A program made the translations under genes and the position numbers. The notes beneath the pieces were generated by a model, which saw only the letters and a list, made by a program, of their open reading frames with translations, had not been told where the DNA came from and made no database searches. A stretch of 64,000 bases of DNA from Azolla caroliniana (Eukaryota; Plantae; Polypodiophyta): assembly GCA_043228905.1 (NCBI GenBank), contig JBHGNT010000014.1, positions 5,704,001-5,768,000 on the forward strand, written 5' to 3'. Below, piece after piece: positions 6,108-64,000 of the stretch. How positions within the stretch are numbered: the stretch's first letter is position 1; each line of letters starts with the position of its first letter.

Positions 6108-6536
6108 TGTCATGATATGGCAAGACTCGAACCCATGACCTTATGCTACATGGGTCGAGCTCTTGACCATTAGACCATACATTGTAATACGTAAAATATT
6201 ATTTTCATTTATGTTTTATTATAGAAAATTGATGTATATTCCAGATTTCTCTGGAACATTCTAGAAACTTCAGGAGTATTCCTTAGAACACTATAAAAGG
6301 AGGCACAAGGCATTATTTCAAACCAAATCGGTTCAATGCCAGTCTTAAGCCTCCTAGCTATTATTGTACATTCTCTTCACATAATATATATCTTCTCTTA
6401 TCATCACTCACTCACTCTCTCCCTCCCTCCCTCCCTTTCACTCACTCTTTACTTCTCTCGAGAGTTCTTCACCTCTCTTAGTACTAATACTTCTTTTAGT
6501 ACTAATTCCTTCTCTGTCTTAGTACTGTTCTTGACA
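6108..6536 (+). repeat. 5' LTR of element B
   Basis: TGTCA...TGACA, TATAAAA at 6292. Repeats at 31997-32437. Confidence 0.93.
6123..6177 (-). promoter_or_regulatory. tRNA-like Pol III A-box/B-box module in U3, antisense to the element
   Basis: Minus strand: TGGTCTAATGG, 33 nt, GGTTCGAGTCT. Confidence 0.6.
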
Positions 6537-6538
6537 GT

Positions 6539-6550
6539 TTGAACCGATTT
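6539..6550 (+). other. Putative self-priming PBS of element B
   Basis: TTGAACCGATTT is the exact reverse complement of LTR 6325-6336. No TGG-initiated tRNA PBS next to the LTR. Confidence 0.7.
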
Positions 6551-6629
6551 TGGTCGATCTTCCTTCCTCCTCTTCCTTTCCTCCTCTTCCTTTTATCTTC
6601 TTATTAATCCTCTTATCCTCCCTAGTAAA

Positions 6630-7772
6630 ATGGAAATTGTTAGCGCTCAGGAATACCAATCTGTTTTCTCGGAGCTCCAGTGCTTAAAAGAGAAATTTGT
6701 AGCACTAGAACAAGAAAATCATCGTTTGTTGGGGGACCTTCAACAAATAGCGCTGGAAAAACAACAACAACATGGGGAGCTGACGTTACGTGTACAACAA
6801 CTCGAAGCGACTATCATATCATTACAACAACAAGGATCAAGCACTCAAGGGATTCACAAAGAACCCAAGATCGGTCTTCTTGCAAAATTTGATGGAACTC
6901 GATCACAGTTTAGAGGGTTTTTGAATCAAGTACGTTTAGTGATACAAATGCATCCTTCTCGATATCCCACCGATGCCTCACGAGTGGGACTAGTAGGCAC
7001 TCTCCTTAGTGGCTCAACGTTAGCATGGTTTGCTCCATTGTTAGAAAAAGAATCTCCATTACTAAATAGTTTTGAAGAATTTATAAGTGAGTTTAAGGCC
7101 TGTTTTGGAGATACTGACACCATAAGGACTGTAATCAACAAAATCCGGCGATTACACCAAGGTGATCGTCCAGCCTCCACATACGCTGCAGATTTCCGCC
7201 TACTCGCTGCCGATATCCCTTGGGATGATCATGCATTGATGGAGCAATTCCGTTATGGCTTACGCAACGATGTCAAGGATTTACTCTTGACCTTCCCCGA
7301 AGAGCCAAAATCATTAACAGAAGCAATTAGTCGCGCGGTGAGATGTGACAACCGCCTCTTCGAACGATGTTCGAAACAACAATTCCAGATTCTAAGGGCA
7401 AGATCAGAGCCTACCTACACCTTAGTGGTAGCGAAACCTTTTCCGAAGGAGTCATATAATGCGCCTCTAGTAAGTTCTCCAACTCTGATGGAAATTGACA
7501 CCACATGTCGTCGTGGACCGCTATCGGAAGAAGAAAAGCAATGACGCCGAGCAAACCGACTATGTCTTTATTGCGGTGGACCAGGGCATATCGCGGTAAA
7601 CTGTCCCCATAGGCCAAGAAGGTAGGTAAACCAAATAGTTGCTAGTTCTGATTGTACTAAACCCGAGTCTATTTTAGTAGGGATATCTCATAGTCCTAAT
7701 AGTACTAATAGCCCAAATCTAGCGAACAAATTTGATGTCCTTAGTCAGTTAGAGGAAGAGTTAAACGATTGA
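6630..7772 (+). pseudogene. gag: Element B gag (PEG10/Tf-like capsid plus CCHC), with premature stops
   Basis: KFDGTRSQFRGFLNQ, LMEQFRYGLRNDVKD. TGA at 7542, then CLYCGGPGHIAVNC. The frame ends at TGA 7770-7772. Confidence 0.88.
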
Positions 7773-8617
7773 GTTCAGCCAAAATAGGAGCCGTTTGGTT
7801 GGACAGCCCTAGATCTATGCAGCCCATTAGTGGTTCCATTCCCTCTAAGCAAGTTAGCAATGTGTTCGTAGCCCAAGTAATAGTTAGTACTAAAAGTACT
7901 CCTCCAGTACATGTCTTAGCACTTCTAGATTCCGGAGCTAATTCTTGCTTCATGGATATGAAATTTGCCCAAGCTCATCAAATATCTCTCAGAAAACTCC
8001 CGTGTCCTGCCTCTGTAGTAGTCATTGATGGTCGTCCCATTGCTTCTGGAAATATCATAGAAGAGTTAGAGCCCGTTAATATTGTCCTAGATAATCTAGC
8101 ATGTGTCGTATTATCTAATATAATTAGCATCCCAGAACACCCCATTGTCTTAGGATTACCATGGTTCAAAATACATAACCCAGACATAGATTGGCGGACA
8201 AGAGAAATCCGGCATCGAAAAGCCTGAGGGTCTACTCATGAGATTGCAACGATTTCACTACATTAGTTGCATGAGGAAGGACGCAAGGAAGAAATGTTCC
8301 TCTTCGCAATATCAGTAAAACCATCTAGCACCAATAAAGAGGAATCCATCGTTCAACTTTCAGAGAAGTATCGTCATTATGCCTATGTGTTTGATAAAGT
8401 ACAAGCCAATACGCTTCCTCACCATCGACCATATGATTGCCCCATCGATTTACAACTGGGGAAAGAGCCACCATGGGGACCAATCTACAATCTGTCACCA
8501 ACCGAACTGGAAGTCCTTTGAGCCTATATAGAGGAGAATTTGGAGAATGGTTTCATACGGCATTCGAAATCTCCAGCCGGCGCACCCATTTTCTTCGTCA
8601 AGAAAAAAGATGGCTCA
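7760..8617 (+). pseudogene. pol: Element B pol part 1 (protease, RT N-terminus)
   Basis: [48 protein letters not shown]. Interrupted by element C. Confidence 0.88.
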
Positions 8618-9072
8618 TATTATAGATCTAGGTACTAAAGTAAGCTTAAGATAAGGATAAAGAAATGAAAGATAGAAAGGAGAAAGAGAAAGAAGGGTGC
8701 CGATCCACCCGACCACCCCCGAGCGAAGGGATCAAGACAGACTCGAGCCTCGATCGGCGTCCCATACCACCGCCGTGGCGTCAAGTCGTACCTGGTGCTG
8801 GCGCGCTCGCTACAAGAGTTGACCCACCACACGAGCAGAGTCTCGATGTAGTCAAAAGATGATCAAATGAGGGTAGCTAGGCCTCTTATTTATAGCGATA
8901 CCCAAGGCCCCCAGGTAAGTTCACACTTGACCTAATGGGTTGTCTCAATCCCGAGGATTAAAAGTAATCCTCCCCTTCTTTACACTCTCGTTTAACCCTC
9001 ACACTTATCCACGTGTATAGAATACTACTATAAATTCTTACCACGGGATATTATATGGTCATGCCCGTAACA
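8618..9072 (-). repeat. 3' LTR of element C
   Basis: Direct repeat of 15558-16012. Confidence 0.95.
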
Positions 9073-12000
9073 TACTCCCCCTCTTTAAAACATTGCACTC
9101 TTGCAATGGAAAGTTAGGGAAGTTAGTTCTAAGAGTATTTTCACGTTCCCATGTGGCATCTTTTATTGATTTATCCATCCATTTTATTTTAAATTCTCGG
9201 ATTTCTTTAGTACGTAATTTTTTTGTTTTAACATCGAGAATTCTTTCTGGTACATGTGGTTTAGAAGATAATTCTTCAGAAGTAACCAGAGTTTCTGTCG
9301 TAACTGTATTGTCGCCAAAACCTAGAAGTTCTTTTAGACGACTCACATGAAAGACTGGATGAATTCCGACACCATCGGGAAGATTGAGACGATAGGCTGA
9401 TGACCCAATGCGTTTGAGGACTGTAAAAGGTCCACAAAACCGTGGGGTTAACTTAGCGCACTTACCCGTAGACAATGTCTTAGAATTGTGAGGTACACGT
9501 AAAAATACCTTCTGTCCAGGGTTGAATACACGAGGTTGCCTATGATGATCGGCATAAAAACGCGCTCTATCTTGAGCTGTTTTTATATTATCTCGTGCAA
9601 TATGCAACATATCTTGCATATCCCGAAGAAAGTTTTGCGTACTTCGCAACTCATCATGATGTATATTAACATCAATCGGGGCTCGTGGCTGAAAACCATA
9701 CATCAACATAAAAGGACTATATCCCGTCGACGTATGCTTGGAGCTGTTATAAGCAAACTCCAAAATTGGGAGATAACGTTCCCATTTTGTTGGTTTCGCA
9801 CCAACGTATGCTCGAAGCATGTCCTCAATAATTTGATTTACTCGTTCTGTCTGTCCATCGGATTGAGGATGATCCGTGGAGCTCATGCTCAACGTAGTTT
9901 CTAACTTCTTAAAGACTTGTGTCCAGAAGTCACTAGTAAACTTTGGATCTCGATCACTCACGATATCCATCGGTAACCCATAAAAACGAAACAATTCGTC
10001 AACGAATTGGTAAGCCAATTCAGGAGCTGTTACCGTGGTTTTAGTAGCAATAAATCTGGCCATTTTAGTTAGTCGATCAACGACAACCCAGATGGCATCA
10101 TGACCTTTTTGGGTGCGAGGAAGGCTAACAATAAAATCCATGGATATACTTTCCCACTTATTATTGGGAATGTCCAAGGGATGTAAAAGTCCTGCAGCTT
10201 TAAGTCGCTCGGCTTTGTTAACCTGACACTGGTGACATTTAGTCACATAGCTATGTATGTCTGGACGCATCTTAGGCCAATAAAATTGAGTGGAGATGAG
10301 AACGAGTGTACGATGTATTCCAGGGTGCCCTGCTTAGGGTGCATCATGGCATTAAAAAAGAATCCTCTTTTTGACCTCGGGTAAATCTGGAACACAAACC
10401 TTCCCATTACGATAGAGCAAACCGTTAGCAATGTGGAAGTATTCCTTCGAGGATGTGGTGGTGTCTGTTCCAGACTCAACTCTTGCCCAGTATTTTGCGA
10501 AATAACTGTCATCAGGATACTTTCCTCGAAGGTGATCATAAAGATCTGATGATATTTCAGTGAAGCTAAGCGTGTTAACTTCATGGATGCGACTTAGTGC
10601 ATCAGCGACAATGTTCATGGAACCTTTACGATATCGTATGGAAAAATCAAAGTCCTGGATGAGATCAGCCCATTGTTCCTTACGACCTTTCAGGTCTTGT
10701 TGGTCACAAAAATATTTCAAGGATTCGTGGTCCGTAGTTACCACAAAGTGATTTCCATAAAGATAATGGCGCCATGTTTTGAGCGCATGTATAACTGCAA
10801 ATAATTCCTTTTCTTGAACGGTATACCGACATTGAGCAGAATCAAGTTTCTTACTCTCGAATGCTATTGGTTTACCATCTTGATACAAGACAACACCTAT
10901 AGCATAATCGCTCGCATCGGTTTCAACCTCAAAAGGTTTTGAAGGATCAGGTAAAAGAAGTGAAGGAGCCTTGCAAACTAGGTCCTTGAGTTCCTTAAAG
11001 GTGAGGTCTAGTGTAGCATTCCACACAATAGGTTTTGTAGACTTACGCGTTTGACCTTTTAAAAGATTAGTAAACGGCGTCGTCAATTGGGAGTAATTAC
11101 GAAGAGACTTTCGCAAAAACCCCACAAAACCAAGGAATGATCGAACTTCTCGAATATTCCGAAGAGTGGGCCAAAGCTTGATTTTCTCAATGCGAGAAGG
11201 ATCAATTTCAACTCCTCGTTCGGTTATGAGATGTCCTAGATAAGTAATTGATTTCTTGAAGAACTCACATTTTGAGATCTTCGCATAAAACTGTTTGTCA
11301 CGCAATGTTTGTAAAACAAAGCGGACATGCCTAGCATGTTCTTGTAATGTACGGCTATAAACTAAAATATCATCCAAGAAAATAACGACAAATTTTCCAA
11401 GTTGTACTCGGAAAATGTCATTCATTTCTTGTTGAAAAGTAGCCGGAGCATTGGTCAAACCAAAAGGCATAACCAAAAACTTGTAATGGCCATAACGCGT
11501 ACAAAATGCCGTTTTAGGAACATCGTCCTCACTTATTCGTATTTGATGGTAGCCAGTACGGAGATCAAGTTTCGTAAAATACCGAGCTCCTTGGAGACGG
11601 TCAATTAGATCGTCAGCCCGGGGCAATGGGTACGAATTCTTGATCGTCACTTTATTCAAGCGTCGGTAATTAATACAAATACGCCATGTGCCCTCTTTCT
11701 TTTTAACCAAGAGAACTGGTGCACCCCATGGAGATTTACTATAACGTATATAACCCATTCGTAAATAGTCCTTGAGTTGCTTAGATACCTCATCTTCTTC
11801 GGATCGACTTAAGCGATACGGAGGTATACTTATTGGTGCAACACCAGGTACAATATCTATACGATGGTCTATATTACGTTTAGGAGGTAACCCATCAGGT
11901 AGTTCACTTGGAAAAACATCATGAAAATCATTTAAGATTTCATCAAGTTGTTGTTGTTCAAAATATGTTAATTGAATCGGGACATTATCGATATTGTAAA

Positions 12001-13492
12001 CGTGAATGTCCGGATCAAGTACACAATAATATAACGTAGAACAAGACAACTCGGATATTGATGGACACGAGGAAACAATCGAGAGGGATTGTTTTTTTAC
12101 ACATTGAATAAAATGCGTACAATCGTTCAGTACAAAAGAAATGGAATGACGAATCCAATCAATAAATAAAGAAGAGTTTTTATTATAAAACCAGGGATAA
12201 CCCAGTATTACATCGATGGTACAAAGATTCATTACATGGAAGTCTACTTCCTCTATATAAGTATCAATAGAAATTCTTAATGAATGAATCGCCCCGTTGA
12301 TGTATTGTACTCTTCCATCAGCCAAGTGCACCGTGTAGGTGTGATCACTTACGGTGGGTTGGATTCCCCATATCTGAACCAAACGATCATTCACAAAATT
12401 GTGTGAGCTTCCCGAATCAAATAAAAATTGTACGGGAGATCCATTGATATACCCGTTTGCACGTAGTAAATCATTGGGACCCAATACATAGTGAGGGAAA
12501 GAACATTGACAATTACTTAAATGGTGTGTATAGACCTGAAGGACATTAGGAATCTGACCTTTATGGTCTGCAGCTTTAGCTTTGTTGTCGTGCTCTTTCC
12601 GTTGGAGCTTTCGACATTGATCTTTTGTATGACCCTTCTTTTTGCAGAATACGCAAAAAGGATGTTGTCGCTTACAATCGCGATCCATGAATTCGTTGGG
12701 TGTCTTGCGTTTCCCAACAAATTGCGACTGCTTAGTCCCGGGCGCTTCGTTGGGTTTGTTATGGTCCTTCTTCGAAGTGCGTTGATAGCGAAGAACTATT
12801 TCAACGGCCTCTTCGAAGGATTTTGGATCCTTATCGTGCACTATCCAGTGATAGTCCGAATTGGGGATGCCATTGACAAAACAAGCTATCAACCAATTGT
12901 CCCCTTCTAGACCCGATTTTTGGATTTGGGTTCTAGCATGGTGAACATAGTCTTCTAGCGAGGAAAATTTCCTGCTAGAGAGGTTCATTAAAGCTTGTGC
13001 TGCCTCGGTTCGAGAGGGAGGTTGCAGAAATTGGCCCTTAAAAACCGTGACAAAATCTGTCCAGGTATCGGGCAATTTCCCCATAGTACGGAGCCCACGC
13101 CACCAGGCGGCGGCCTTACCCCCGAGTTCTCGGCCGACATATGCAATCTTCGTACTATCTGGCGTGGGATAGAGCTCAAAATGAGACTCCCATCGTCCCA
13201 GCCATGTGCAGATTGCTTCTTCGGTTCTTTCCTTTTTGTCTCCCGTAAATGGCTTAACGACAAATGATGGTTCACCTTGTCGCTCATCAGGTCTATTAGT
13301 CTCACGTTGTAGACTAATGACACGTGCCTCAAGAGCACTCTGAGATTGCCAAAGTTCGGTCATCTGTTGAGCGGTGAAACTAAGGTATTGGGTTATTTGT
13401 GCCAAATACATCTCAGTGGACATTTGTCCAGGAGGATTCCCTTGAGTTCCTTCCGCTTGAGCGGATGACATCGGGTTGTTAATTTGAGCCAT
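9059..13492 (-). pseudogene. gag-pol: Element C single-frame gag-pol (Gag, CCHC, PR, RT, RNase H, IN, chromodomain) with one in-frame TAA at 10352-10354
   Basis: [34 protein letters not shown]...SDRD, PERILD...IKW...DATWE. ORFs 10352-13492 and 9059-10270 share a frame. Confidence 0.92.
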
Positions 13493-14338
13493 TAAAAATT
13501 ATTTCTGGAAAAGAAATAGGATAAGGTCAGAGAGATAGTCATAACATCATGTCGTGATGTAAACATATCATGGGCGAGCATTAATCGATATCATTATCTC
13601 ACGTCAATACCCCTCTAGACGTATGAGATGAGGTTCAAGATCAGGTTACTATGGTAACACAAAGGTGTTTTAAAAACCATGGGGGTGACAAATAAATGTC
13701 TTTCCCTGATCTCTATATCGATTTTTTCATGGTGGCTCCCCGAGGCTCAACCATGTATATTCGCGTCATGAATAGTTTATACACGAAAAAAAATGTTAAC
13801 AATAAACTATGTTTCGGTGCTCACATAAGTGGTTTCGGCTCTTTAAGTCCTATTACGAGGACCCCGAGGTGCACTTAGACCTTAAGTCTAAACATGTGCT
13901 ATAGTCATATGTATCAAGGATGTTGTATGGTCTTGGTCATATTTGAACTCGAGACCACGAGAACAAATACATTAAACACTTGAGCCAACCAAGTAAGTTG
14001 CTCTTCTCGAATGCTTAATGTTTGATGCGTATAAGAGATATGCGAGGCAATTGATCATATATGTTTTTTTAAAAGAACATATATGTCAAGGGTCCTTATT
14101 TCGCCCTCATTTACCAAAACTATGTTGGTACGTTACCTAACCTCAAGTCTCGTAATTACGATGGCATATGCCAAAGTGCAACCTAATGGTCAAGCCAAAT
14201 GAGCCCTCGTTTCTTAGTAGGCTCACGTGGGCCATCACATGGTCACGTCATTACGAATGCCTCTCGTAAGAACGAGCTCATGGTGGCATCGTATCCATGT
14301 AACGAGGGAGGGATGTTGGATACGTGCGTCATTGGAGC

Positions 14339-14709
14339 TGTTGTATGTATGGCTGGACTAGCCTCAACACAGGTGTCTATCCGACACTTCTCCAAAGGGG
14401 TGGTAGGGATAGAATGTTAATACACGCGTATGATAATTACACTTAAGCACAGACGAAGACAAGATTAATCAGCATAAGCAAAACTATATTAATTCTTCGC
14501 CCCTTCATTACAAAACATCGGATCCTTTTATAGGCATCCGGCCAGATTACAATCGGTGCTCGGTAGGCAACCGTTAACCGAAACCGAATCGGTTCGGATC
14601 CGGATCGGTTACAACTACCGGATCCGTCCCTCCTAATAATTCTATTCCTATTTCTATATTTATCCGATCCGACCTTGCTTTCCCATTTGCCTTTTCTGAC
14701 CGGCCAACA
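14339..14709 (-). mobile_element. Solo LTR inserted in the 5' leader of element C
   Basis: TGTTG...CAACA ends. TSD GGAGC at 14334-14338 and 14710-14714. TATAAAA on the minus strand near 14530. Confidence 0.85.
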
Positions 14710-15057
14710 GGAGCGACCTCACTTGAAGTGGGTCAAGCCCTACGTACTCAACATCATTTTGGCTATTGGCGTTTCTTTACGTAACGAAATCGAGGTCGTC
14801 AACGGGGTTATCAACAATAAAAAAATGTTGAAAAAGGGATGGTGACAACGCCATTCTCACAAAAATGTGAGGACGGCCACCAACATCCTTTTCCCAACCA
14901 TGACAACTTTCGATATAATCACGTAATAACGAATATACACATATGTTTACTTATCACATATATACGATCAAATACGTATATATGTGACCACATATGCCTA
15001 TATTAAACATATCGTTATAGTAAATAGCCACAAATGATGTGATCGAGATACGTAATC

Positions 15058-15300
15058 GAGGTATATACCTCTACGCACACGAAACATCCACAAATAAGAG
15101 ATCATCGTAATACGCAATGGAGGTATTGACCTCTTACGCATACGAGACCAAACACATATCGTTTACAACAAATCAAGGTATTAAACTCATACGCAAACGT
15201 AACATATGTTCGTGAACGTAATACGTAATTGAGGTATTAACCTCGTATGCATACGACACTCATCACATATTATTAATATGTCAAACGAGGTATTGACCTC
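15058..15300. repeat. Five-unit hairpin repeat GAGGT-N4-ACCTC, period 55-62 bp
   Basis: Copies at 15058, 15120, 15175 (degenerate), 15231 and 15287. Confidence 0.8.
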
Positions 15301-15557
15301 GTGCACATATGTAAACGTTTTAGATAATCAATTAAAGACCACTACAACATCATTGACTTAATGAAAAAAATTACATATAAACTAAACACATGATTAGATG
15401 GGAGAAGAGAGAATAGAAAGAAAAATTATGGAAAGAGTTACCGAAGTTCTTTGTTGATCGTTGTCTGGATCAAGGCCAACCGCACAACGATCGATCAGCA
15501 TCAATCAAAAGACAAATGAAAAACAAAGAAACATTAGTATAAAAATCTGATACCAAA

Positions 15558-16012
15558 TATTATAGATCTAGGTACTAAAGTAAGCTTAAGATAAGGATAA
15601 AGAAATGAAAGATAGAAAGGAGAAAGAGAAAGAAGGGTGCCGATCCACTCGACCACCCCCAAGCGAAGGGATCAAGACGGACTCGAGCCTCGATCGGCGT
15701 CCCATACCACCGCCGTGGCGTCGAGTCGTACCTGGTGCTGGCGCGCTCGCTACAAGAGTTGACCCACCACACGAGCAGAGTCTCGATGTAGTCAAAAGAT
15801 GATCAAATGAGGGTAGCTAGGCCTCTTATTTATAGCGATACCCAAGGCCCCCAGGTAAGTTCACACTTGACCTAATGGGTTGTCTCAATCCCGAGGATTA
15901 AAAGTAATCCTCCCCTTCTTTACACTCTCGTTTAACCCTCACACTTATCCACGTGTATAGAATACTATGATAAATTCTTACCACGGGATATTATATGGTC
16001 ATGCCCATAACA
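15558..16012 (-). repeat. 5' LTR of element C
   Basis: Direct repeat of 8618-9072, next to the PBS. Confidence 0.95.
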
Positions 16013-18684: not shown

Positions 18685-19322
18685 TGTCGAGGTATTCCTC
18701 GCGGATGCGTGGAATGAGGCGGGACCTCGGGGGTCCTGTACCGAAGAGTAAGAGAGAAAGAGAAGAGACCCACTACGTGCGAGCGTAGATTCACAGGGAC
18801 ACGGCCCTTCGACACAAAGACGCGAATGGGACAGCGACACAGAAGACACGAAAAGTATGTATGTATTGACAAGACAAACAACAAGAACACGAAGACAACA
18901 AACACGAAGTCGGTTACAACCGAACAGGCCGGCGAACAGATGCCGATACCTGCTCGTAAACGCACAGAGGGGAAAGAGTAGGTTGGAGGTGCTGCCGGAA
19001 GCACTCGGGCATTCCTCAGAGCAGCGCGAGCCTCCCGAAACCTGCACAGAAGGAAGCTATGGCGTTTGCAACCGGAAAGAGAGAGAGAGAGAGAAGCCTT
19101 CGCATGCAAACCGACAACACTTCGTCCTCGACTCTCCGCGATCCTTCTACCCTCCTCGTCTCCCTCCTTTTATAGGCAAGGAAGGAGCCGTTTCCCCTTT
19201 ACTCCCTACCTACCGAATCTACCTAGGATCTCCTATGTACAACTTAAGGCGCACGTGCATGAAGAGTCGGTTTCTACGCTCCGGTGCACCGATTCCGCTC
19301 GTGGACGGTTTTCTTCACGACA
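18685..19322 (-). repeat. 3' LTR of element E
   Basis: Direct repeat of 30705-31341. Confidence 0.94.
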
Positions 19323-19395: not shown

Positions 19396-21570
19396 TCATT
19401 CCCCGCCCGTCGGTTCTTCCTCGGTTTCGGATCGTTCGTCGTCCCGGTCCAGGTTAACCGGATCCGGCTCGTCGTCGTGACGCTTCTTGAACGCTTTGAT
19501 CCGTTTCCCAGCTACCGGTATCGCCACTCTTGTGCCGTCGAGTTCCGCCAGATGGTACGTCCCGTTGTCGTTGGCGCTTTGTACCACGTAAGGCCCGAAC
19601 CACCTTCTTGCGAACTTCCGCGTTGCTCGGTGCTGGTTGTTGAGGTTGCTGTCGTAGACTAGCACCTAGTCGCCTTCCTCGATCTTCTTCGGTCGGAGCC
19701 GGTGTGTTCGGTCGAACCGGGCTTTGTTCCTCATCCTTGCTTCCCGAAGCTTTTCCGCACCCTGCTCCATGTCCTCCGGTCTTCGCTCGAGCTGTCGTAT
19801 GCGCGCCGTCAACAGTTCCTCCCGGCTCATCTCGTCTCTCCAGTCCACGGTTGCCCATGAGGAGACCGTACGTTCGATCGGCATGATCGGGTTCTGCCCA
19901 AACATGAGCTCTTCCGGCATGAATCCGGTTACCGAACTGTGCGTAGTCCGGTCAGCCCACAACGCGTAAGGCAGTAGCCGCGGCCAGTTCCCGACTTGAC
20001 CTCCGCATGCCCGAACTAACGCCTTGACGATCGGTCCGTGTCCGTGCTCCACCTTCCCATTTGCCTCTGGATTGTACGCAGTGGTAAGCGAGAGCTTGAC
20101 CCCTAACCGATCGAACAGCTCCTCGGCCTCTTCGGCGTCCAACTCCCCGCGATCAGCCACGATCTTCCCGACGCACCCGTACCGGCATATTACGTCCTCG
20201 AGCAGGAACCGACATACGGCTGCAGTCGTTTTGTTCTGAAGGGCCCGGCCTTCCACCTGGTTCGTTAGATCTTCCCGAGCCAGGACTAGATACCGCATCT
20301 GTCCTACTCCTATCGGCATCGTTACCAGGTCTACCATCCATTTGAAGTGGATGGTTGGAGGGTACGTAGGGTGAAGTTCGTCCCGGTGTCGGACTATGGA
20401 GTGCATCTGACAGCTCTCGCAAGTTGTCACGAATCGATGCACGTCCCGGTATAGTCCCGGCCACCAGTACTTCCCCTTTATCTTCTCGAACGTGGCCCAG
20501 GTTCCACGGTGTCCGGCCCAAGGGCTGTCGTGGTAGGCCGTCAGCAGCTCCTCCTGTTCTTCCTTCATCGCTACCACCCGGAGCGGAGCGCCGTCCCTCT
20601 TCCTCGGGTGCTTCCATAAGTATCCGTCCCGGAGAAAGAATCGGTAAGCTTTCTTCCGGATCCGGTTGGCCTCGTCCTTCGTCCATGACGCATCCGGCGT
20701 CATTGTCCTCAAGAATCCACCGATCTGGAGCCACTCGCCGTCGTACTTGCTCTCATCGAAGTCGTTAAGTGCCGGAGTGCTCGTCCCATCGGTCGTCACG
20801 TACGCCGCCTCGAAGAAGTCCACGCCGACTTCTTCGTCCTCCGAAACCATGCCGCCCTCGTCATCAAACCTCGCCCTTGAAAGCATGTCGGCCATGGCGT
20901 TGTCCTTTCCGGAAATGTGTCGTATCTCCGGGTCCAGGGACTTGATGTACGCTATCCACCTGAGCATCGCCAGGTCCGGTGTCGCGCATCCGGAAACCAT
21001 GCCAAGAATCGGCAGGCAATCCATCTCGATAATCACTTCTGTCCTGATCAGGTAGTCTTTGTCCGCCTTTACCGCCGAAACGATACCCCAGAGTTCGCGT
21101 TTAACCTAGGCGTACCCTCGCTGTCGCTCACTGAGGACCTTAGCGCCGAATCGGATCGGGAACCGGGTGCCGTCCTCGTCTTCTTGGTTGACGACCCATC
21201 CGATCCCGGTCGGGCTCGTATCCACCGTTATGTATACCGGGGTACCCTTCTCGTAGACAGCCTTCCGGAGCGCCGGTGCTGCCGCAAGAGCTTCCTTCAG
21301 CTTCCGGACCGACCCCGTGTGCTCGTCTCGCCACTCGAATCTTTGCCCCTTCTTCAGCAACCCGTATAGTGGCTCCGCAACGTGGGCGTAATGCGGGATC
21401 CATATGTGGTAGAACGCGCATGCCCCCAGGAACCTCCGAACTTCCGTAACCGAGCTACAGTCGGTCTTCATCGCGGAGATGGCTTCTACCTTTGCCGGAG
21501 ACGGCTTCCGGCCATATGGTGCACATAGATGCCCGACCACCAGGATTTCTGATTGCCCGAAGGCCGATTT
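19396..21570 (-). pseudogene. pol: Element E pol 3' part (RT end, RNase H, IN, GPY)
   Basis: ITVDTSPTGIG, AGHRG...CESC, WMVDL...IVADRGE, WFGPY. In-frame stops near 21107 and 19666. Confidence 0.9.
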
Positions 21571-22372
21571 TGTTATACGCAGTGCTCGGCCACAACCGAG
21601 AAATAGGATTAACTTTCAGAAAACAGGAATTACAAAATACACGAAGATAATGGGGAGAAGAGTACACAGGATATTTTACGTGGAAAACCCTAAGTGGGAA
21701 AAACCACGGGAGTCCTCAAACTCCAACTATCACTATATGCAGAGATGTACAATGATGAAGCTACAAGGCAACAACCTTGAGCTCACAGTCTTCGCCACAG
21801 GCGGCGGTAATACACTGAGGCAACGACCTCTTCGTCTCTCACACTCTCTCGGCTGCTCTCACTTCGCTCCCTCTTCGTGGAAAACAGAAAATGAGCAACA
21901 ACAACATAAAACTGTTTGCCCTAAGTCATATTTATACACATATGACTTTTGGGCTATTTACAAATATAGCCTCAAGGGCTCTTGGCAAACATATTCACAA
22001 ATATGTCCCCGCATCCGGATCTCTCTCCGGGTACATTCGTCATCCGGCTCCGTAACCGGGGTCTTCAGCATCCGGCTCCGTAACCGGGGTCTTCATCATC
22101 CGGCTCCGTAACCGGGGTCTTCATCATCCGGCTCCGTATCCGGGTACATTCGTCATCCGGCTCCGTAACCGGGGTCTTCAGCATCCGGCTCCGTAACCGG
22201 GGTCTTCATCATCCGGCTCCGTAACCGGGGTCTTCATCATCCGGCTCCGTATCCGGGTACTCTTTATCCGGCTTCATGCCGGGTACTCTTCATCATCCGG
22301 TTCCGTAACCGCAACCGGGCTTGCCGTCATTCATCTCCGGACATCCCATCCGGAGGGACCGAAATCCCAACA
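21571..22372 (-). repeat. 3' LTR of element F, containing a ~30-bp tandem array (CATCCGGCTCCGTAACCGGGGTCTTCAT) at about 22010-22310
   Basis: Direct repeat of 26461-27262. Confidence 0.96.
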
Positions 22373-22382
22373 AACTCCCCCT

Positions 22383-25300
22383 TCACTTCGGCATGGGATG
22401 TCTCTCCAATCCGACTCTCTTCCGGCACGCTCCCAGCTTGTCGGGTGTGAGCACTTTGGTCAGCATATCCGACCCGTTCTCGTCCGTGTGGACCTTCGTC
22501 AGCACGAACTCCTTGTCTTCTATCCTTTCCCGGATCCAGTGATATCTTCGCTGGATGTGCTTCGTCCGGGAGTGATAGGCCGCGTTCTTCGCAAGGTGGA
22601 TGGCACTCTGACTGTCGCAGTAGAGTCGGTACTCCTCCTGCTGGATACCGAGCTCTCTAATGAAGTCCTTCATCCATATTATTTCTTTGCCGGCTTCAAC
22701 AGCCGCCATGTACTCCGCCTCCGTGGTTGACAACGCAACCGTCTTCTGCAGCCTCGACTGCCACGAAACAGCTCCCCCTGCATACGTCATCACATACCCT
22801 GATGTGGACCGGCTGGTATCTGCATCAGCCGACATATCAGAATCAGTAAAGCCTTCAAGTTCGGGCTTACCGGAGCCGAATCGGAGGCACACGTTTGCCG
22901 TGCCCTTCAGGTATCGGAGTATCCACTTGACCGCGTTCCAGTGCTCTTTGCCGGGATTGCTCATGTACCGGCTCACCACTCCAACTGCATATGCTATGTC
23001 CGGTCTTGTACACACCATTGCGTACATTAAGCTTCCGACGGCAGAGGCATATGGTACTTTCATCATGTCCTCCTTCTCAGCCTTTGTCTTGGGGCTTTGC
23101 TTGCTGGACAACTTGCAGTTTCCCGGGAGGGTTGACCCGACCGGTCTTGCTTCCGACATGTTGAACCGGTGAAGCACCTTTGTCACGTACTTCTCCTGTG
23201 ACAGCCACAACTGCTTCTTCTTCCGGTCCCGGATGATGTGCATCCCTAATATTTGCCTCGCCGGACCCAGGTCCTTCATTGAGAAGGTTCGGTGAAGCGC
23301 TTTCTTCAGCGTCCGTATCTTGACCTGGTCCCGTCCGACGATCAACATGTCGTCCACGTATAGGAGGAGTATTAGAGAGTCTCCTCCTTCGAACTTCTTC
23401 ACAAACACGCAGTGATCGGACTGCGTTTTGTGGTACCCTTCGTCGGTCATGAAGGAGTCGAACTTCCGGTACCATTGCCGGGGAGCCTGCTTCAATCCGT
23501 ACAGGCTTTTCTTCAATCGGCATACCAGGTGCTCCTTCCCTTTCTTCTCGAATCCTTCCGGTTGCTGCATGTAGATCTCTTCTTCGAGGTCACCGTGAAG
23601 GAATGCCGTCTTCACGTCCATCTGTTCTACCTCGAGGTCCATGCTTGCCGCTATGCTCAGCACCATCCGGATGGAGGTCATCTTCACTACCGGGGCGAAT
23701 ATCTCGTCGAAGTCGACGCCCTTCTTCTGCTGAAACCCCTTCACCACGATCCTGGCTTTGTATCTCGGGGGGTTTCCGGCATCTCCCGGTTTCAGCTTGA
23801 ACACCCACTTGTTTCGAAGTGCCCGCTTTCCTTTCGGCAACTCCACAAGTTCATATGTGTGGTTCTCATGCAGGGAATCCATCTCGTCCTGCATGGCACT
23901 CAACCACCTGCGGCTCTGGGTGTCATGCTTTGCTTCTTCAAAGCTCTCCGGCTCCCCTTCGTCGGTTAGCAGCACGTGCTCTGGTTCCGGAAATCTCCGG
24001 GGGGCCCTTCTCTCTCTTAGAGGATATCTCCGTTCCGGAGCTTCGGTAACCGGTTCTTCCGATTCTTCTTCATCCGAATCCATTTCGGGATCGGGGCCGG
24101 TTCCGGTATCATTTTCATCTTCTTCGGCCGGTTCCTCGAGTGTTAACCGGTCCCTTGCCGGTCGGGACTGCTCCTCGTAGAGTTGATCCTCACCGATCGA
24201 CTTGGAGCTCTTCATCTTCTTCTCCGACTCCCAGTCGGCGAGTGTCTTGTCCTCCATGAAGATGATGTCTCGACTCCTGAATATCTTCTTGTCGACCGGG
24301 TCCCATACTCGGTAGCCGAACTCGTCGTCGCCGTAACCGAGGAATATGCATGGCCGGGTCTTTGGATCTAGCTTTCCTCTCCGGTCCTTTGCCACATGCA
24401 CGTATGCGAGACACCCGAACACCTTCAGATGCCGGTAGGACACTTCCTTACCGGTCCACACTTTCTGCGGCGTGTCTCCATCCAAAGGTACTGAGGGTGA
24501 TCTGTTTATCACGTATGTCGCCGTCGACATTGCCTCAGCCCAAAACCCCTTGGGTAATTTCGCATGTGCCAGCATACTCCGGACCCTCTCCATTATGGTC
24601 CGGTTCATCCTCTCGGCCAGCCCGTTTAGTTCCGGCGTCTTCGGCACAGTAAACTCGAGCCGGATTCCCTTCGAGCGACAGTACTCCTGGAACTGCCCCC
24701 GGTATTCCCCTCCGTTATCCGCTCGTATCGCTTTCAGCTTCTTGCCGGATTCTCTTTCCACTCTCGCGTGGAGTTCTTTGAAGACGGACAACACTTGGTC
24801 CTTTGTCTTCAACGGCGCCGTCCACAGCTTCCGGCTGTGATCATCAATGAAAGTCACGAAGTACTGGGCTCCGCCATGTGACTTCGTTTCTACCTGACAC
24901 ACATCAGTGTGCACCAACTCCAATGGTGCGCTACGTCTCGTCGGTGGCCTTGAGTGGAAGGAGGTTCGGTTCTGCTTACCGGCCAGGCAATCGGTGCACT
25001 TCTCCAGATGCACATGCTTCACTGGAATGAGGTTGTCTTCTGCATGCCTCTTCATCCCCTTCTCACTCATGTGGCACAGTCTCTTGTGCCACAGCTCACC
25101 GGCAGTGTCGGCTGCCACGTTCAGCTCCTCCGGACATAGCCGGGAATTCATCAGGTACAGGGTGTTGACCTTCCGGGCCCGAGCCACTATCAGGCTCCCC
25201 TTGCTGAACTTCATGACACCGTTCCGGATGCTACCCGTGTAGCCTTCATCATCTAGCCTCCCGGCCGAGATCAGGTTCAATCGGACCTCCGGAACGTGTC

Positions 25301-26429
25301 GCACATCCTTCAACAGCATCTTGCATCCGGTTGATGTCAACAGCCACACGTCTCCTATGCCGGCAATCCGGCATGTGCCTTCATTTCCCATCCGGACACA
25401 GCCGTGCTCACCGGCTGTGTAGGATGAGAAGTATTTCTTCTCCGGGGTCAGGTGGAACGACGCTCCGGAATCGACCACCCAGGTCATCTCTACACCGGCA
25501 AGGTTCAGCTCCTTCTCTTCGGTAATAAGCATTATCTCTTCTTCACTTGCCGCAAGTGCCGTCGTTCCTTTCCGGTCCTGCCCTCGCCGATCCGGACCTC
25601 TCCGGTCCGTGGCTCCCCGGTATGCACCGTTTCTCTCCGGTGACTTCTTCGAATCGGTGTCGTCGGCTCCGTTGTCCTTTCGGTAGTGCCGACAATTCTT
25701 CCGGAAGTGCCCCGGCTTCCCACAGTGGAAGCATGTTGGCCTTCCTCTTGACTGCGACCGGGTCCCCGACTTCTCCCGTCTTTGCGGACTCCGGTTCCAT
25801 TGTCTTCCCCGATCCGATTCGGTAAGCAGCATCTTCTGATCAGAAACCGGTTCTTTATCTCTCCGACGCGCTTCTTCGTTCAAAATACTTGTCTTTACCG
25901 TTTGTAGGGACAAGTTATCTTCGGTGCAGGAGGTGCTGAGAGTCACCACCAAGTTCTCCCAGCTGTCCGGCAATGTACACATCAGGATGATGGCTTGCAT
26001 TGCATCCTCCAACGGGAACTTGATCGCCGCAAGCTGGTTCACGAATCCCATGAACGTGCTTACGTGTTCCACCATACTCTCGCCGTCCCGGTACTTGAGG
26101 TTCACTATCTTCCTCATCAGGGAGGTCCGGTTCAACGCATTCTTCCTCTCATAGAGGCCCGACAGCTTCTTCCACATCTCATAGGCGTTCGTATCGTTCG
26201 CCACATGTTGCAGGACACTTACATCGACATATTGCCGGATCGTCGCTACGGCTTTCCGGTTCAGGAGCTTCCACTCCGACTCTATTACCCCCTTGGGTAT
26301 CTCGGCATTGTCGATCGGTTCGTATAGGTCTCGGACGATGAGAAGGTCTTCCATCTTTATCTTCCAGTCGGCGTAGTTCTGTGAGTTCAACACCATCATG
26401 CCAGGAGGCCCACTACCGCCGCCTTCCAT
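22383..26429 (-). CDS. gag-pol: Uninterrupted copia Gag-Pol polyprotein, 1348 aa
   Basis: CFHCGKPGHFRKNC, VVDSGAS, HTDVC/DNGGEY/AER, YVDD, FTDSD/EAE/YCDSQ. No stops. Confidence 0.96.
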   Translation of the reverse strand: MEGGGSGPPGMMVLNSQNYADWKIKMEDLLIVRDLYEPIDNAEIPKGVIESEWKLLNRKAVATIRQYVDVSVLQHVANDTNAYEMWKKLSGLYERKNALNRTSLMRKIVNLKYRDGESMVEHVSTFMGFVNQLAAIKFPLEDAMQAIILMCTLPDSWENLVVTLSTSCTEDNLSLQTVKTSILNEEARRRDKEPVSDQKMLLTESDRGRQWNRSPQRREKSGTRSQSRGRPTCFHCGKPGHFRKNCRHYRKDNGADDTDSKKSPERNGAYRGATDRRGPDRRGQDRKGTTALAASEEEIMLITEEKELNLAGVEMTWVVDSGASFHLTPEKKYFSSYTAGEHGCVRMGNEGTCRIAGIGDVWLLTSTGCKMLLKDVRHVPEVRLNLISAGRLDDEGYTGSIRNGVMKFSKGSLIVARARKVNTLYLMNSRLCPEELNVAADTAGELWHKRLCHMSEKGMKRHAEDNLIPVKHVHLEKCTDCLAGKQNRTSFHSRPPTRRSAPLELVHTDVCQVETKSHGGAQYFVTFIDDHSRKLWTAPLKTKDQVLSVFKELHARVERESGKKLKAIRADNGGEYRGQFQEYCRSKGIRLEFTVPKTPELNGLAERMNRTIMERVRSMLAHAKLPKGFWAEAMSTATYVINRSPSVPLDGDTPQKVWTGKEVSYRHLKVFGCLAYVHVAKDRRGKLDPKTRPCIFLGYGDDEFGYRVWDPVDKKIFRSRDIIFMEDKTLADWESEKKMKSSKSIGEDQLYEEQSRPARDRLTLEEPAEEDENDTGTGPDPEMDSDEEESEEPVTEAPERRYPLRERRAPRRFPEPEHVLLTDEGEPESFEEAKHDTQSRRWLSAMQDEMDSLHENHTYELVELPKGKRALRNKWVFKLKPGDAGNPPRYKARIVVKGFQQKKGVDFDEIFAPVVKMTSIRMVLSIAASMDLEVEQMDVKTAFLHGDLEEEIYMQQPEGFEKKGKEHLVCRLKKSLYGLKQAPRQWYRKFDSFMTDEGYHKTQSDHCVFVKKFEGGDSLILLLYVDDMLIVGRDQVKIRTLKKALHRTFSMKDLGPARQILGMHIIRDRKKKQLWLSQEKYVTKVLHRFNMSEARPVGSTLPGNCKLSSKQSPKTKAEKEDMMKVPYASAVGSLMYAMVCTRPDIAYAVGVVSRYMSNPGKEHWNAVKWILRYLKGTANVCLRFGSGKPELEGFTDSDMSADADTSRSTSGYVMTYAGGAVSWQSRLQKTVALSTTEAEYMAAVEAGKEIIWMKDFIRELGIQQEEYRLYCDSQSAIHLAKNAAYHSRTKHIQRRYHWIRERIEDKEFVLTKVHTDENGSDMLTKVLTPDKLGACRKRVGLERHPMPK

Positions 26430-26460
26430 TTTCTGTGTTACCGTCGCTCTGATACCAATT

Positions 26461-27262
26461 TGTTATACGCAGTGCTCGGCCACAACCGAGAAATAGGATT
26501 AACTTTCAGAAAACAGGAATTACAAAATACACGAAGATAATGGGGAGAAGAGTACACAGGATATTTTACGTGGAAAACCCTAAGTGGGAAAAACCACGGG
26601 AGTCCTCAAACTCCAACTATCACTATATGCAGAGATGTACAATGATGAAGCTACAAGGCAACAACCTTGAGCTCACAGTCTTCGCCACAGGCGGCGGTAA
26701 TACACTGAGGCAACGACCTCTTCGTCTCTCACACTCTCTCGGCTGCTCTCACTTCGCTCCCTCTTCGTGGAAAACAGAAAATGAGCAACAACAACATAAA
26801 ACTGTTTGCCCTAAGTCATATTTATACACATATGACTTTTGGGCTATTTACAAATATAGCCTCAAGGGCTCTTGGCAAACATATTCACAAATATGTCCCC
26901 GCATCCGGATCTCTCTCCGGGTACATTCGTCATCCGGCTCCGTAACCGGGGTCTTCAGCATCCGGCTCCGTAACCGGGGTCTTCATCATCCGGCTCCGTA
27001 ACCGGGGTCTTCATCATCCGGCTCCGTATCCGGGTACATTCGTCATCCGGCTCCGTAACCGGGGTCTTCAGCATCCGGCTCCGTAACCGGGGTCTTCATC
27101 ATCCGGCTCCGTAACCGGGGTCTTCATCATCCGGCTCCGTATCCGGGTACTCTTTATCCGGCTTCATGCCGGGTACTCTTCATCATCCGGTTCCGTAACC
27201 GCAACCGGGCTTGCCGTCATTCATCTCCGGACATCCCATCCGGAGGGACCGAAATCCCAACA
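26461..27262 (-). repeat. 5' LTR of element F
   Basis: Direct repeat of 21571-22372, next to the PBS. Confidence 0.96.
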
Positions 27263-31341: not shown

Positions 31342-32004
31342 ATGGGATGTCACCCCCGGTGGTGTATACTTGAAACCCCTGAGCTGTCCACAAATCCTTG
31401 CGTGGAGGATCGTTTGGAGCGGTTACGCAAGATACAAGCGTATTTATCTACTCATCTCCAACAAGCTCAACAAACATACAAGGTTTATGCGGATCGTCAT
31501 CGACTCCCATCCAGTTTTAACATTGGAGATCGGGTATGGCTACTATGACGACACATCAAGACTACTTGCCCATGCGAGAAGTCGGATTATCGGCGATTAG
31601 GTCCTTTCCATATTATAAGAAAGATTAATGATGTCGCTTTTCGTCTTGATCTACCTCCGCACCTTCGGATACATCTAGTGTTTCAGAGTTCTCTCCTCGA
31701 ACCCTATCAAGAGAGCACCATCCCAAGACGTATTACACAACCTCCACCCCCGATCGAGCTTGAAGATGGACCTGAGTATGAGGTTGCCGCCATCCTTGAT
31801 TCCAAGATTGTTCGCAACAAGCTCTACTATCTAGTCGATTGGCTAGGATATAGTCCCAGCGAGTGTACTTGGGAACCTATAGAGAATGTGACCAATGCTC
31901 GTGCTCTTCTTGAAGACTTCCATCGTCAATATCCAGACAAACTGGGTCCTCAATCCAAAACGGCTCGTTACACTCGTCGTTTTAAAGGGGGGATAGTGTC
32001 ATGA
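31342..32004 (+). pseudogene. pol: Element B integrase C-terminus with a canonical (group I) chromodomain
   Basis: LGPF, then EYEVAAILDSKIVRNKLYYLVDWLGYSPSECTWEPIENV. Confidence 0.9.
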
Positions 32005-32437
32005 TATGGCAAGACTCGAACCCATGACCTTATGCTACATGGGTCAAGCTCTTGACCATTAGACCATACATTGTAATACATAGAATATTATTTTCATTTA
32101 TGTTTTATTATAGAAAATTGATGTATATTCCAGATTTCTCTGGAACATTCTAGAAACTTTAGGAGTATTCCTTAGAACACTATAAAAGGAGGCACAAGGC
32201 ATTATTTCGAACCAAATCGGTTCAACGCCAGTCTTAAGCCTCCTAGCTATTATTGTACATTCTCTTCACATAATATATATCTTCTCTTATCATCACACAC
32301 ACACACACACACACACTCTCTCTCTCTCTCCCTCCCTTTCACTCACTCTTTCCTTCTGTCGAGAGTTCTTCACCTCTCTTAGTACTAATACTTCTTTTAG
32401 TACTAATTCCTTCTCTGTCTTAGTATTGTTCCTGACA
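31997..32437 (+). repeat. 3' LTR of element B, including the antisense A/B-box module at 32012-32066
   Basis: Direct repeat of 6108-6536, with a microsatellite length change. Confidence 0.93.
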
Positions 32438-39586: not shown

Positions 39587-39987
39587 TGTCGTAAGAAAGA
39601 GAGAGAATTGAAAGGGAAATATTGTATTGTAGAGTAAAATGGATTACAAGGAGTAGGCAACAGAGTGTTACAAAATGACGTTGAACCGATTTAGGTTTGG
39701 GATGATTCATAGATCCCTATTTATAAGTAATAGAGAACACTCTACAATATTCTAGGTCATCCTAGAATGTAAAGTGATCTAGAAGGTTCTAGTGTATGGA
39801 ACACTCTAGAATATTCTAGGTCATTCTAGAATGTAGAGTAATATAGAATACTCTTATGATATTAGATTATATATTCTAAAAACTATACATATAAGAATAT
39901 TAATACAATGGTTAAGGATTTGACATGTGTATAACAAGGTCGTGGGTTCAAACCCTTTTGAGGCATGATGTGAGTGTCATCATGACA
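39587..39987 (-). mobile_element. Solo LTR related to the element B family, with mismatched flanks
   Basis: Minus strand TGTCATGAT...ACGACA. Shares the A/B-box module, TATA and AAATCGGTTCAA with the B LTRs. No TSD. Confidence 0.8.
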
Positions 39988-41731: not shown

Positions 41732-42500
41732 TGTCGTGAAGATTTTCGGCGATAATGTGTAAATTGTGAGGAACACACAAAATCGAGTGTGGTTCTTCTC
41801 ACAAGATATGAAACAATATTAGTGAAGACACTATTCTAAATAAGTTTAATATCTTGGTACGAAAAGATGGAGGTCTTCAAGAGCTTTCAAATGCACTTTA
41901 CTACATAAGAAATAGACAACTAAGTGTCAAGTTATGTGGGTATGAAGATTGCGAAGAAGAAGAGAAAAACAAAACTAAGAGATATCCCACATAGATAGGA
42001 TAAATAAGGATCCTAGAGTATATAAGCAAACCAATAGCTCTTCATAATATATTTATGTGTTTGGAGCATAGAAAGATTGAGTTGTATGACTTGATGATTG
42101 GATGCAACCAAGTTCATTAGTTTTGGACAAATCCGGATGGAACCGGACCGACGAACGACACCCGACGACACTGGTGACCGGACGACAACGAAACCGATGA
42201 CTGGAACCGAATGGTGACCGGACGACGATGAAACCGGAACCGGAACCGGAACCGAATGGCGATCGGATAGCTACGGAACTGGATGACATGCGGACCGGGC
42301 CGGACGGATGCGAATCGGATGGACCGGACGGGTGGATTTATCACGACACACGATGTCTTAAAGTTTTCCAGTGTGAAACGAACAAAATCTTCTAGTTCTT
42401 TGGAGGTCAAGTGAAGGTGTAATATGCACTTACACATTTGTAAAAACAAGACTAAAAAGCCTAGTAAAAAGAAAATTTGTATACAAAGAGGTGCAAGTAA

Positions 42501-42554
42501 GAATTTGAACCTTGCACCTCCAAGTTAAAAGTGAATAGGCTTACCACTAAGCCA
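42501..42554 (-). promoter_or_regulatory. tRNA-like A-box/B-box module in the element G LTR, antisense
   Basis: Minus strand: TGGCTTAGTGG, 32 nt, GGTTCAAATTC. Confidence 0.62.
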
Positions 42555-43047
42555 AGTCATATCTTTAAAAGTTTTGCTTTGATCATTTTACATGTAAATT
42601 CTCATACATGAGAGCTTAGATGATGACATGGCAAACATGCATTGCATGCATTTCATGCATTACGTGCATGTCTCACACCCTCACATGCACCATATGCATG
42701 GGGGCATCTATAAAAGAGTGGAGGAATCAAGCAAGAAAAAACTAATGAAAAATTTGGGAAAAATAAGAAACTTGTTATCCGATTGTTGATGTATCTTGTC
42801 TCTCAAATCTAAAGTTAAGCGTTTAAATCTTTATCTCAATCTCGCTCTTTCTCCATATCAGTCTCTCTCAATCTATCTTAAATACTTTCTCACTAAAGCT
42901 AGTACAAACTTCAAATCCTTCTGGTCCAGAACCCCGACGGTTCCGCCTCACGATCCGCACATAGTGACGGATTTTCACGACATAATTAAGTGGTGAACCC
43001 GACGTGAAGAGGCGGTAGGAAGGATCAAGTCAAGGATTGACCGATAC

Positions 43048-50353: not shown

Positions 50354-50590
50354 TTGAAAGATCCCTCTAAAACATGCCTCCAATGTGTAAAAGAGTCCAC
50401 TATTGCTAATAGCTCCTTGTCATGAATTTCATTATTGATTTCGGTGGCGTCAAACTTGCATGAGTGGAAAGCCACAAGATGTAGCTTTTCATCATAACAT
50501 TGTTGTGACAGAATGCTACCCAGGGCAAAATCCGACGCCTCTGCCTCAATTACCAACGGTTTTTTCAGATCAATATGAGATAGAATAGGA
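50354..50590 (-). pseudogene. pol: RNase H fragment of an element B-like chromovirus
   Basis: PILSHID...IEAEASDFALGSILSQ...[12 protein letters not shown]...WRHVLEG, similar to 16720-16950. Confidence 0.8.
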
Positions 50591-62879: not shown

Positions 62880-63262
62880 GGTGGTGTGGATGTTTCGAGC
62901 GTATGCACGTGTGCATGGTTGTGTGGACGTTTTCGAACGTACGTGCGTGTGCAAGTTTCGGGCGTATGCGTGCACGGACTCGTGGGACATTCGCACGAAC
63001 GCGTGTGTGTGGACGTTTTCGGACGTACGTGTGTGTGCAAGTTTCAGGCGTACGCGTGCATGGCCGCGTGGACATTTCAGAAGGACGAGTGCGTGCATGG
63101 ACTCGTGGGACGCTCGCACGGACACGTGTGTGTGGACGCTTCGGGCGTATGCACATGTGCACGGTTGTGTGGACGTTTTTGGACGTACGTGCGTGTGCAA
63201 GTTTCGGGTGTACATGTGCACGGACTCCTGGGACGCTCGCACAGATGCGTGTGTGTGGACGA
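62880..63262. repeat. Tandem array in the 3' LTR of element I
   Basis: Repeated GTGTGGACGTTTT/GTGTGCAAGTTTCGGG/GGACTCGTGGGAC units. Confidence 0.82.
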
Positions 63263-63265
63263 GTG

Positions 63266-64000
63266 ACCACCAGGGTCTTGGACTAGGGAGGACGTTCGCA
63301 GAATTATCGAAGAGATGACGATCAATGTAAGATTAGATGAAATTGGTTTACTTGAGAAGAAGAAAGATTGTACACTTGAGAAGTAGAAAAATATGAAGAA
63401 GATAAAGACAAAGATAATTATATTGATAATAATGGTGTTGGTGATATCATATATTGAGCCCCCCTTACACAAGCCCAACTAGAGGCTTTTATAGGTCTTT
63501 CCATGCTTGTGACATGCACAAAACCATGGGCTAAAACCATGGTTTTGTGCACACGGTTTTGCTTATGTCATGCACAAACCATGGGTTTAGAACCATGGTT
63601 TTGTGCACATGGTTTTGTATGGTTGTTTCATCTATAATTCATATATAAAAGGGAAATACATAAAATCTACATTATATGATAGTTGTCCTAATGGTAAGGC
63701 AATTATCTTGTATCTTAGAGGTGCAAGGTTCAAACCTTGCTTGCACCCATGTGTATGAACTCAAGTGCCACTAGGCCTTAGGTTTATTTGCTAAGTGCAT
63801 GTGCAATGTTGCACATCCTTGGTTTATTCTTCTCACTCGGTTTCACACCGTAGTCGAAAATCGTCACGACATCCACCCCCACCAAACCCACACATCCTCC
63901 GGTATGTGCCGAGAAAGGTGAAGAGGTGAGATCTTTGGCAACGGTGATCAACCGAGTTCCTCTGCACGCTCGTTGACCTCTTCTGACTTCGTCTTCCACT
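63266..64000 (-). mobile_element. 3' LTR (about 63266-63871) and 3' end of another gypsy element O that continues beyond the window
   Basis: LTR start TGTCGTGAC at 63871, next to PPT GGTGGGGGTGGA as in element E. TATAAAA on the minus strand near 63490. The left end resembles the G LTR U5 but lacks its terminus. Confidence 0.75.
63684..63737 (+). promoter_or_regulatory. tRNA-like A-box/B-box module in the element O LTR, antisense
   Basis: TGTCCTAATGG, 32 nt, GGTTCAAACC. Confidence 0.55.

Follow-up and report, generated by a model that had tools for sequence, protein, structure and literature searches.

Pol III promoters in LTRs have been described for non-coding TRIMs, where they supposedly take the place of the Pol II promoter. 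The LTRs of Helenus (TRIMp3) contain a tRNA-like sequence with boxes A and B (PMC10886601); these elements are non-coding TRIMs of 311-1263 bp, and in four LTRs of the supplement, including that of Selaginella Helenus-1_SMo, the tRNA part lies in sense and is proposed to transcribe the element. The same source (Kojima, 2024; PMC10886601) considers it unlikely that autonomous partners share such LTR sequence but adds that tRNA-like parts occur in "not a few" LTRs of Repbase, and its available text makes no mention of moss. Cassandra and Ajax TRIMs, the former from plants, also carry a Pol III internal promoter inside the LTR, but theirs is of the 5S type (box A, IE, box C), belongs to non-autonomous elements and drives the element's own transcript (PMC10886601). 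Foamy viruses, which are autonomous LTR elements, have in their U3 a Pol III unit that works separately from the Pol II promoter and yields defined dumbbell pri-miRNAs with terminators (PMC6950176). TFIIIC sites beside Pol II promoters, in divergent arrangement and with a proposed boundary role, are known from tDNA/TFIIIC insulators and B2 SINEs, that is, from yeast and mouse host loci or SINEs (PMC4228148, PMC8136502). Plant self-priming chromoviruses, finally, constitute the Tcn1 clade, which among plants is limited to mosses and club-mosses (PMC6317226); a tRNA-like LTR part is not described for this clade in the available portions of two sources (PMC6317226, PMC2864245), and none is mentioned in that of the RLG1 literature (PMC7466625). 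In our literature search, which covered mostly openly accessible papers, no such module was described in moss or in autonomous plant elements, and a viral sequence collection gave a single, uninformative locus.

The elements studied here share with Helenus the boxes in the LTR and depart from it in that they encode gag-pol, keep a TATA box and carry the tRNA-like part in antisense. Unlike the foamy-virus units, their modules have the geometry of tRNA genes with no conserved fold or terminator, and unlike the yeast and mouse sites the module is integral to the promoter of a plant retrotransposon, where a boundary role would be putative. The new observation is that coding gypsy elements of two lineages carry, next to an intact Pol II promoter, an antisense module of type-2 Pol III promoter layout that is under selection.

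The window, i.e., the whole stretch of 64,000 nucleotides that was analysed, is a pile of nested LTR retrotransposons (Table 1). Element B (6108-32437) is broken up by later insertions and encodes gag, protease, RT, RNase H, integrase and a chromodomain according to Pfam. It possesses both the chromodomain and the self-priming primer-binding site of Tcn1 chromoviruses, its gag and LTR end resemble those of SM-Tcn1 (PMC6317226, PMC2864245), and judged by sequence it can be assigned to the self-priming Tcn1-type chromoviruses, the comparison with SM-Tcn1 being by eye only. Taken by itself, self-priming would point to a bryophyte as the likely host. Inspection by eye of the SM-Tcn1 LTR from Selaginella revealed no module (PMC2864245, supplement S3). 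About 15 letters after the SM-Tcn1 5' LTR are, by eye, complementary to the R region and would form a self-priming site; the paper reports that none was found (PMC2864245). Elsewhere in the window, a copia element (21569-27262) with identical 804-bp LTRs and an open frame of 1359 aa is a very recent insertion.

Table 1. Coordinates of the LTRs, tRNA-type modules and associated features in the window.
Feature	Position	Strand	Remarks
5' LTR of B (Tcn1-type chromovirus)	6108..6536	+	TG..CA ends; 415 matches and 14 substitutions over 429 aligned letters with the 3' LTR (96.7%); target-site duplication TCTAT/TCTAC around element B
tRNA-type A box/33 nt/B box module, B 5' LTR	6123..6177	-	A box 6167-6177, variable-loop AGGT 6138-6141, B box 6123-6133
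AT-rich tract upstream of A box	6178..6235	.	putative TFIIIB loading place
TTCnnGAA array, B LTR	6249..6282	+	presumably heat-shock-element-like
Pol II TATA-like box, LTR B	6291..6298	+	
Self-priming primer-binding site, B	6539..6554	+	15/16 letters complementary to R region 6322-6336
gag of B	6630..7544	+	Pfam Retrotrans_gag, Ty3_capsid
Integrase C-terminus and chromodomain of B	31549..32004	+	Pfam SH3_Tf2-1, Chromo; motif-independent search anchor
3' LTR of B	31997..32437	+	preceded by polypurine tract
Module, B 3' LTR	32012..32066	-	
Lone LTR, sister Tcn1-type family	39587..39986	-	aligns to B LTR along its length; no clean target-site duplication
Module, lone LTR	39901..39955	+	antisense to LTR
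5' LTR of G (chromodomain-less gypsy, DUF4100 gag region)	41732..42982	+	tRNA-type primer-binding site 42991-43007, whose primer we take to be tRNA-Trp
Module, G LTR	42501..42554	-	score 22.9
3' LTR of O (G lineage)	63262..63871	-	begins at 63871 behind polypurine tract; TG start, homology to G LTR; U5 truncated; coding region outside window
Module, O LTR	63684..63737	+	antisense to LTR; score 27.6

A preliminary description of this DNA had reported five modules, each with an A box and a B box 32-33 nt apart, antisense to their elements and upstream of the LTR TATA box, in four families representing two unrelated gypsy lineages. All five were found, with these boxes and this spacer. The pattern ARTGGT-N(30-36)-GTTCRA has five occurrences in the window, whereas 100 locally composition-matched random windows contain 0.21 on average (maximum 2); ARTGG-N-GGTTCRANNCY has four, as compared with 0.01 in composition-matched random windows. 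Orientation was borne out as well, the plus-strand elements B and G carrying minus-strand modules and the minus-strand solo LTR and O carrying plus-strand modules, as was the location at ~120 nt (B), 160 nt (G) and 195 nt (O) upstream of the TATA box. The four families reduce to two lineages, since the B copies are LTRs of a single element, the solo LTR represents a sister family of B, and the LTRs of G and O are homologous. These lineages are indeed distant: only 50 residues align between the RTs of the G/O lineage and B, at 34% identity, against 44% over 297 residues between two chromoviruses. As for the A boxes, the ARTGGT core is kept and the canonical 5' half TRGY is intact in B and G only. 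In addition, the variable-loop AGGT of tRNAs makes up a third conserved block that had been overlooked. Nor did the preliminary description name Helenus, the nearest known counterpart.

We surveyed the Tcn1-type relatives of B by protein, because selecting on the motif itself had to be avoided. The integrase-chromodomain protein beside the 3' LTR identified 80 loci of 46-91% identity, the low values being biased downward by frameshifted copies. An LTR start was recognisable in 71 loci (absent in 9), and 8 more with less than 130 nt of LTR were dropped; the remaining 63 LTRs of 130 nt or more, together with the window copy, formed 41 families at 85%, which were aligned blind to the motif. The B-box core was present in 34 of the 41 LTR families, always in antisense, and the strict A+B pattern occurred in antisense in 19 of the 41 representatives and in sense in none. 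A matrix accepted (score 20 or more) 30 of 41 representatives and 53 of 66 LTRs of at least 100 nt, figures that are partly circular, as it was trained on 20 of the scored loci.

Conservation was concentrated in the boxes. Across the 41 families, information reached 1.40 bits at the invariant B positions, 1.30 in AGGT and 1.09 in the A core ARTGGT, whereas the anticodon arm had 0.40 and adjacent U3 0.39; the A-box 5' half TRGY was poorly kept (0.55 bits). Similarly, in comparisons of 164 pairs of families whose integrases were 50-65% identical, identity amounted to 91% in the boxes, 43% in the anticodon arm and 41% in upstream DNA. The CpG at positions 56-57 was CG in 17, CA in 18, TG in 3 and TA in 1 (p 0.0015, a value that like our others overstates independence, columns and families being related), so that the tolerated CA clearly outnumbered the box-breaking TG. 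G53, T55, C56 and A58 were invariant in the 30 representatives scoring 20 or more, and position 59 was free to vary, in agreement with the degenerate B box GTTCRANNC. A-to-B spacing was 33-34 nt in 21 of the 29 pairs found, with the B box 11-63 nt from the LTR end. Of 19 loci whose pol frame is open over 800 aa or more, 17 had the module, and one exception had both boxes and a longer spacer; scores of 30 or more were reached in 31 of 39 high-coverage contigs versus 10 of 25 low-coverage ones. Rows without the module were scattered at tree tips with no clustering. In four sequencing runs under four organism labels, the B LTR was found in thousands of contigs, 35-99 per run joining the LTR start to the polypurine tract, and two of 40 variants listed among 160 fell in the module, one of them affecting the spacer and the other the R of the A box; contig recruitment favours conserved seeds, hence run variants of B and O are used as supporting evidence only and depth is not taken as copy number.

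These results demonstrated that the module is real, lineage-wide and under selection. The expectation that the boxes would be far better conserved than adjacent U3 was thus confirmed across LTR families, and the sporadic SINE insertion that might have explained the modules was excluded: the position is fixed across the clade, and the five copies show no tail or duplication of their own. Its presentation as a built-in LTR part proved right for most Tcn1-type members and too broad for the G/O lineage, in which it is not universal. A weaker antisense A/B-like module was also seen in pol, between protease and RT, of one subfamily (L015:261-307, L016:4959-5005, L017, L018, L019, L024:2654-2701); it is similar to the LTR module of the same family, and its score of 17-18 lies in the range of random sequence.

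The surroundings of the module follow a regular layout. Inward of the A box lies an AT-rich tract of 50-60 nt and then a Pol II enhancer-like array; AT content was 81-89% at 20-50 nt inward of the A box and ~63% beyond 80 nt (26 families). Arrays of TTCnnGAA were present in 24 of 36 family representatives versus 2.5 in shuffles, and in six loci (L026, L036, L037, L044, L048, L080) other arrays replaced them; we label the former heat-shock-element-like and the latter G-box/RY-like. Module and AT tract were kept in 17 families with the former type of array and in 6 with the latter. Since it is kept while the Pol II array is exchanged, the module outlasts enhancer turnover.

Evidence on the G/O lineage comes from the two window copies and from contigs of the sequencing runs. 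With the matrix trained on 20 Tcn1-type loci only, both of its modules scored above the best of 60 random windows (19.8), and no further modules were found by this matrix in the window. The module lies ~770 nt from the LTR end in G and ~135 nt in O, and outside it the G/O U3 gave only short, weak matches to Tcn1-type LTRs. Among 40 of 43 O-family variants listed from the four runs, changes affected eight spacer positions and box positions 15 and 59, where variation is tolerated, and none fell at 63718-63733. The frames scanned with Pfam gave no chromodomain match in G or O, and a guess would be that the lineage is Phygy, a non-chromovirus gypsy clade defined by RT-RH-INT phylogeny. In both copies (42480-42520; 63716-63752) the B box is enclosed by an 8-10 bp inverted repeat, giving a hairpin unlike a tRNA T arm. 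Within this window, the module was absent from the K and D LTRs of the same lineage, from element C and from five copia LTRs. The K (50590-51444) and D (18685-19322) LTRs, having the primer site and termini of G and no module, constitute natural negative controls. The 2-kb leader of chromovirus C (8617-16012) contains a weak variable-loop and B-box match (~13925-13990, minus strand) with a short-spaced A-like box, sense to C, whose score of 15.4 is not significant.

Taken as a promoter, the module shows the B box GTTCRANNC, the A box at tRNA distance and the AT-rich upstream region of type 2, and lacks a consistent T-run terminator. It is very probably a selected TFIIIC/Pol III site, judging from which letters are kept. 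As for its selected function, we favour chromatin insulation acting at the DNA level, with a probability of about 0.5, because the features kept are those that TFIIIC reads plus the upstream AT tract, and because in yeast TFIIIC sites and assembled Pol III complexes stop read-through by Pol II and act on their neighbours (PMC4228148). The module would constitute an outward-pointing tRNA-type promoter on the outer side of the LTR's Pol II promoter. Its boxes would bind TFIIIC, which would load TFIIIB on the AT-rich tract, as TFIIIB loads on the AT-rich upstream tract of plant tRNA genes (PMC13578239). In such a layout TFIIIB would face the Pol II promoter, and any Pol III transcription would run outward, between the promoter and the flanking DNA; the bound module may thereby maintain an open LTR promoter and shield it from read-through and from the heterochromatin on its flank. 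For B2 SINE boundaries, too, TFIIIC binding or divergent Pol III/Pol II transcription has been discussed, with a divergent TATA box (PMC8136502).

It is unlikely, in our estimate, that selection acts instead on a short antisense RNA made from the module as a Pol III gene, an RNA that would regulate the element or the host. Pol III hairpin cassettes of this kind sit in foamy-virus U3 (PMC6950176), and the conservation of both boxes, their spacing and the upstream AT tract is what initiation requires. Since the B box alone may suffice for a barrier, the conservation of the A box and of the spacing points to real initiation and makes an RNA role possible. The quasi-palindromic B-clade module (window 6108-6190, minus strand; L005, L035, L027) is also predicted to form a long rod hairpin (z -3 to -7; individual values -4.3, -4.2 and -7.1), and rod covariation scored above shuffles on all 30 rows (4/500). 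Against this, other families lack the rod, its signal disappeared without the B clade (22 rows, p 0.15-0.21), RNAalifold gave no consensus pair, and of 33 modules only 5 had z below -2. (The 30 of 41 representatives scoring 20 or more were the basis of the substitution table and of the fold and covariation tests; a set of stem and terminator tests covered 21.) A T4 run lay inside the LTR in 7 of 21 families, outside it in 8 and was absent within 150 nt in 6, and the O module had no terminator T-run within 210 nt; with such a distribution, 5' and 3' LTRs would yield different RNAs.

The module as a tRNA gene was likewise considered and rejected. ARAGORN at default settings called no tRNA in the window, and none of its nine window calls at the 85% threshold coincided with a module; with Rfam, neither the window nor two modules nor the LTRs of 12 loci matched a tRNA. 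Both programs detected two genuine tRNAs in L033. These genes (L033:553-626 and 832-905; Asn and Thr) lie 200-300 nt from a Tcn1-type fragment. No stems covaried: cloverleaf positions were 52.9% paired versus 53.0% in shuffles, and the acceptor-stem test (p 0.04) came with only 38% pairing and was read as relatedness. Because a conserved fold and terminator are lacking, a defined antisense RNA is weakened, and the absence of a conserved cloverleaf, fold or terminator suggests that the RNA product matters little and points to a TFIIIC/TFIIIB site at the level of DNA.

A quite improbable reading is that an old SINE or tRNA insertion left the module behind as a relic without function, or that the boxes are kept for another factor, such as a Pol II regulator or the integration machinery. 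SINE insertion has been proposed as the source of Helenus-type LTRs (PMC10886601), the module keeps close to the LTR end in Tcn1-type elements, and its positions 43-61 are 72% identical to a real L033 tRNA. However, the anticodon arm has only 22% identity with that tRNA and between families is hardly more alike than background, although the boxes are retained, and the distances in G and O are far larger. Furthermore, the CpG asymmetry and the fixed spacing need selection. A relic origin of the module is likely, without present-day neutrality.

Pairing of the genomic RNA with a host tRNA is a very improbable reason for keeping the module. The genomic RNA would be the complement of tRNA D and T loops and would pair with the tRNA in reverse transcription; the orientation makes it complementary to tRNA, directly behind the polypurine tract. 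A tRNA-like stretch reportedly exists in HIV-1 U3. In Ty3, a bipartite primer site has a 3' half (PMC11381356). But B self-primes and needs no tRNA, and K and D have the primer site of G, yet no module. Moreover, wobble changes were not favoured (T-to-C 0/120, G53-to-A 0/30), the pairing-breaking C61-to-T occurred in 4/30, and the variable position 59 fits such pairing no better. That the module is a landing pad for Pol III-targeting retroelements is hardly credible, for although Pol III-targeted integration is known in yeast and amoebae, no upstream insertion was seen at the five window modules, only 1 of 43 loci was interrupted in the 160 nt inward of the A box, and attraction would be a consequence that gives no reason for selection.

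Two considerations qualify the insulator reading. First, the module is dispensable in relatives: it is missing from K, D and, by eye, SM-Tcn1, and 11 of 41 Tcn1-type representatives score below 20. Second, yeast TFIIIC sites also repress adjacent Pol II genes (PMC4228148), so the effect on the LTR promoter could have either sign. The wider scenario, that two distant gypsy lineages separately took up a host tRNA promoter as an outward-facing insulator and that every new insertion carries a TFIIIC/TFIIIB barrier of its own into heterochromatin, is put forward tentatively and with some doubt.

The carrier clade is thought to target heterochromatin, and RLG1, a chromodomain gypsy of Physcomitrium, is the prevailing element of heterochromatin and at the same time strongly expressed (PMC7466625). 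If the insulator reading is true, the module would be a cis-acting anti-silencing device that helps explain how heterochromatin-seeking chromoviruses stay transcribed, and it would give a direct handle on tDNA insulator function in plants. The finding bears on retrotransposon activity in silent chromatin and on TFIIIC sites as possible plant barriers.
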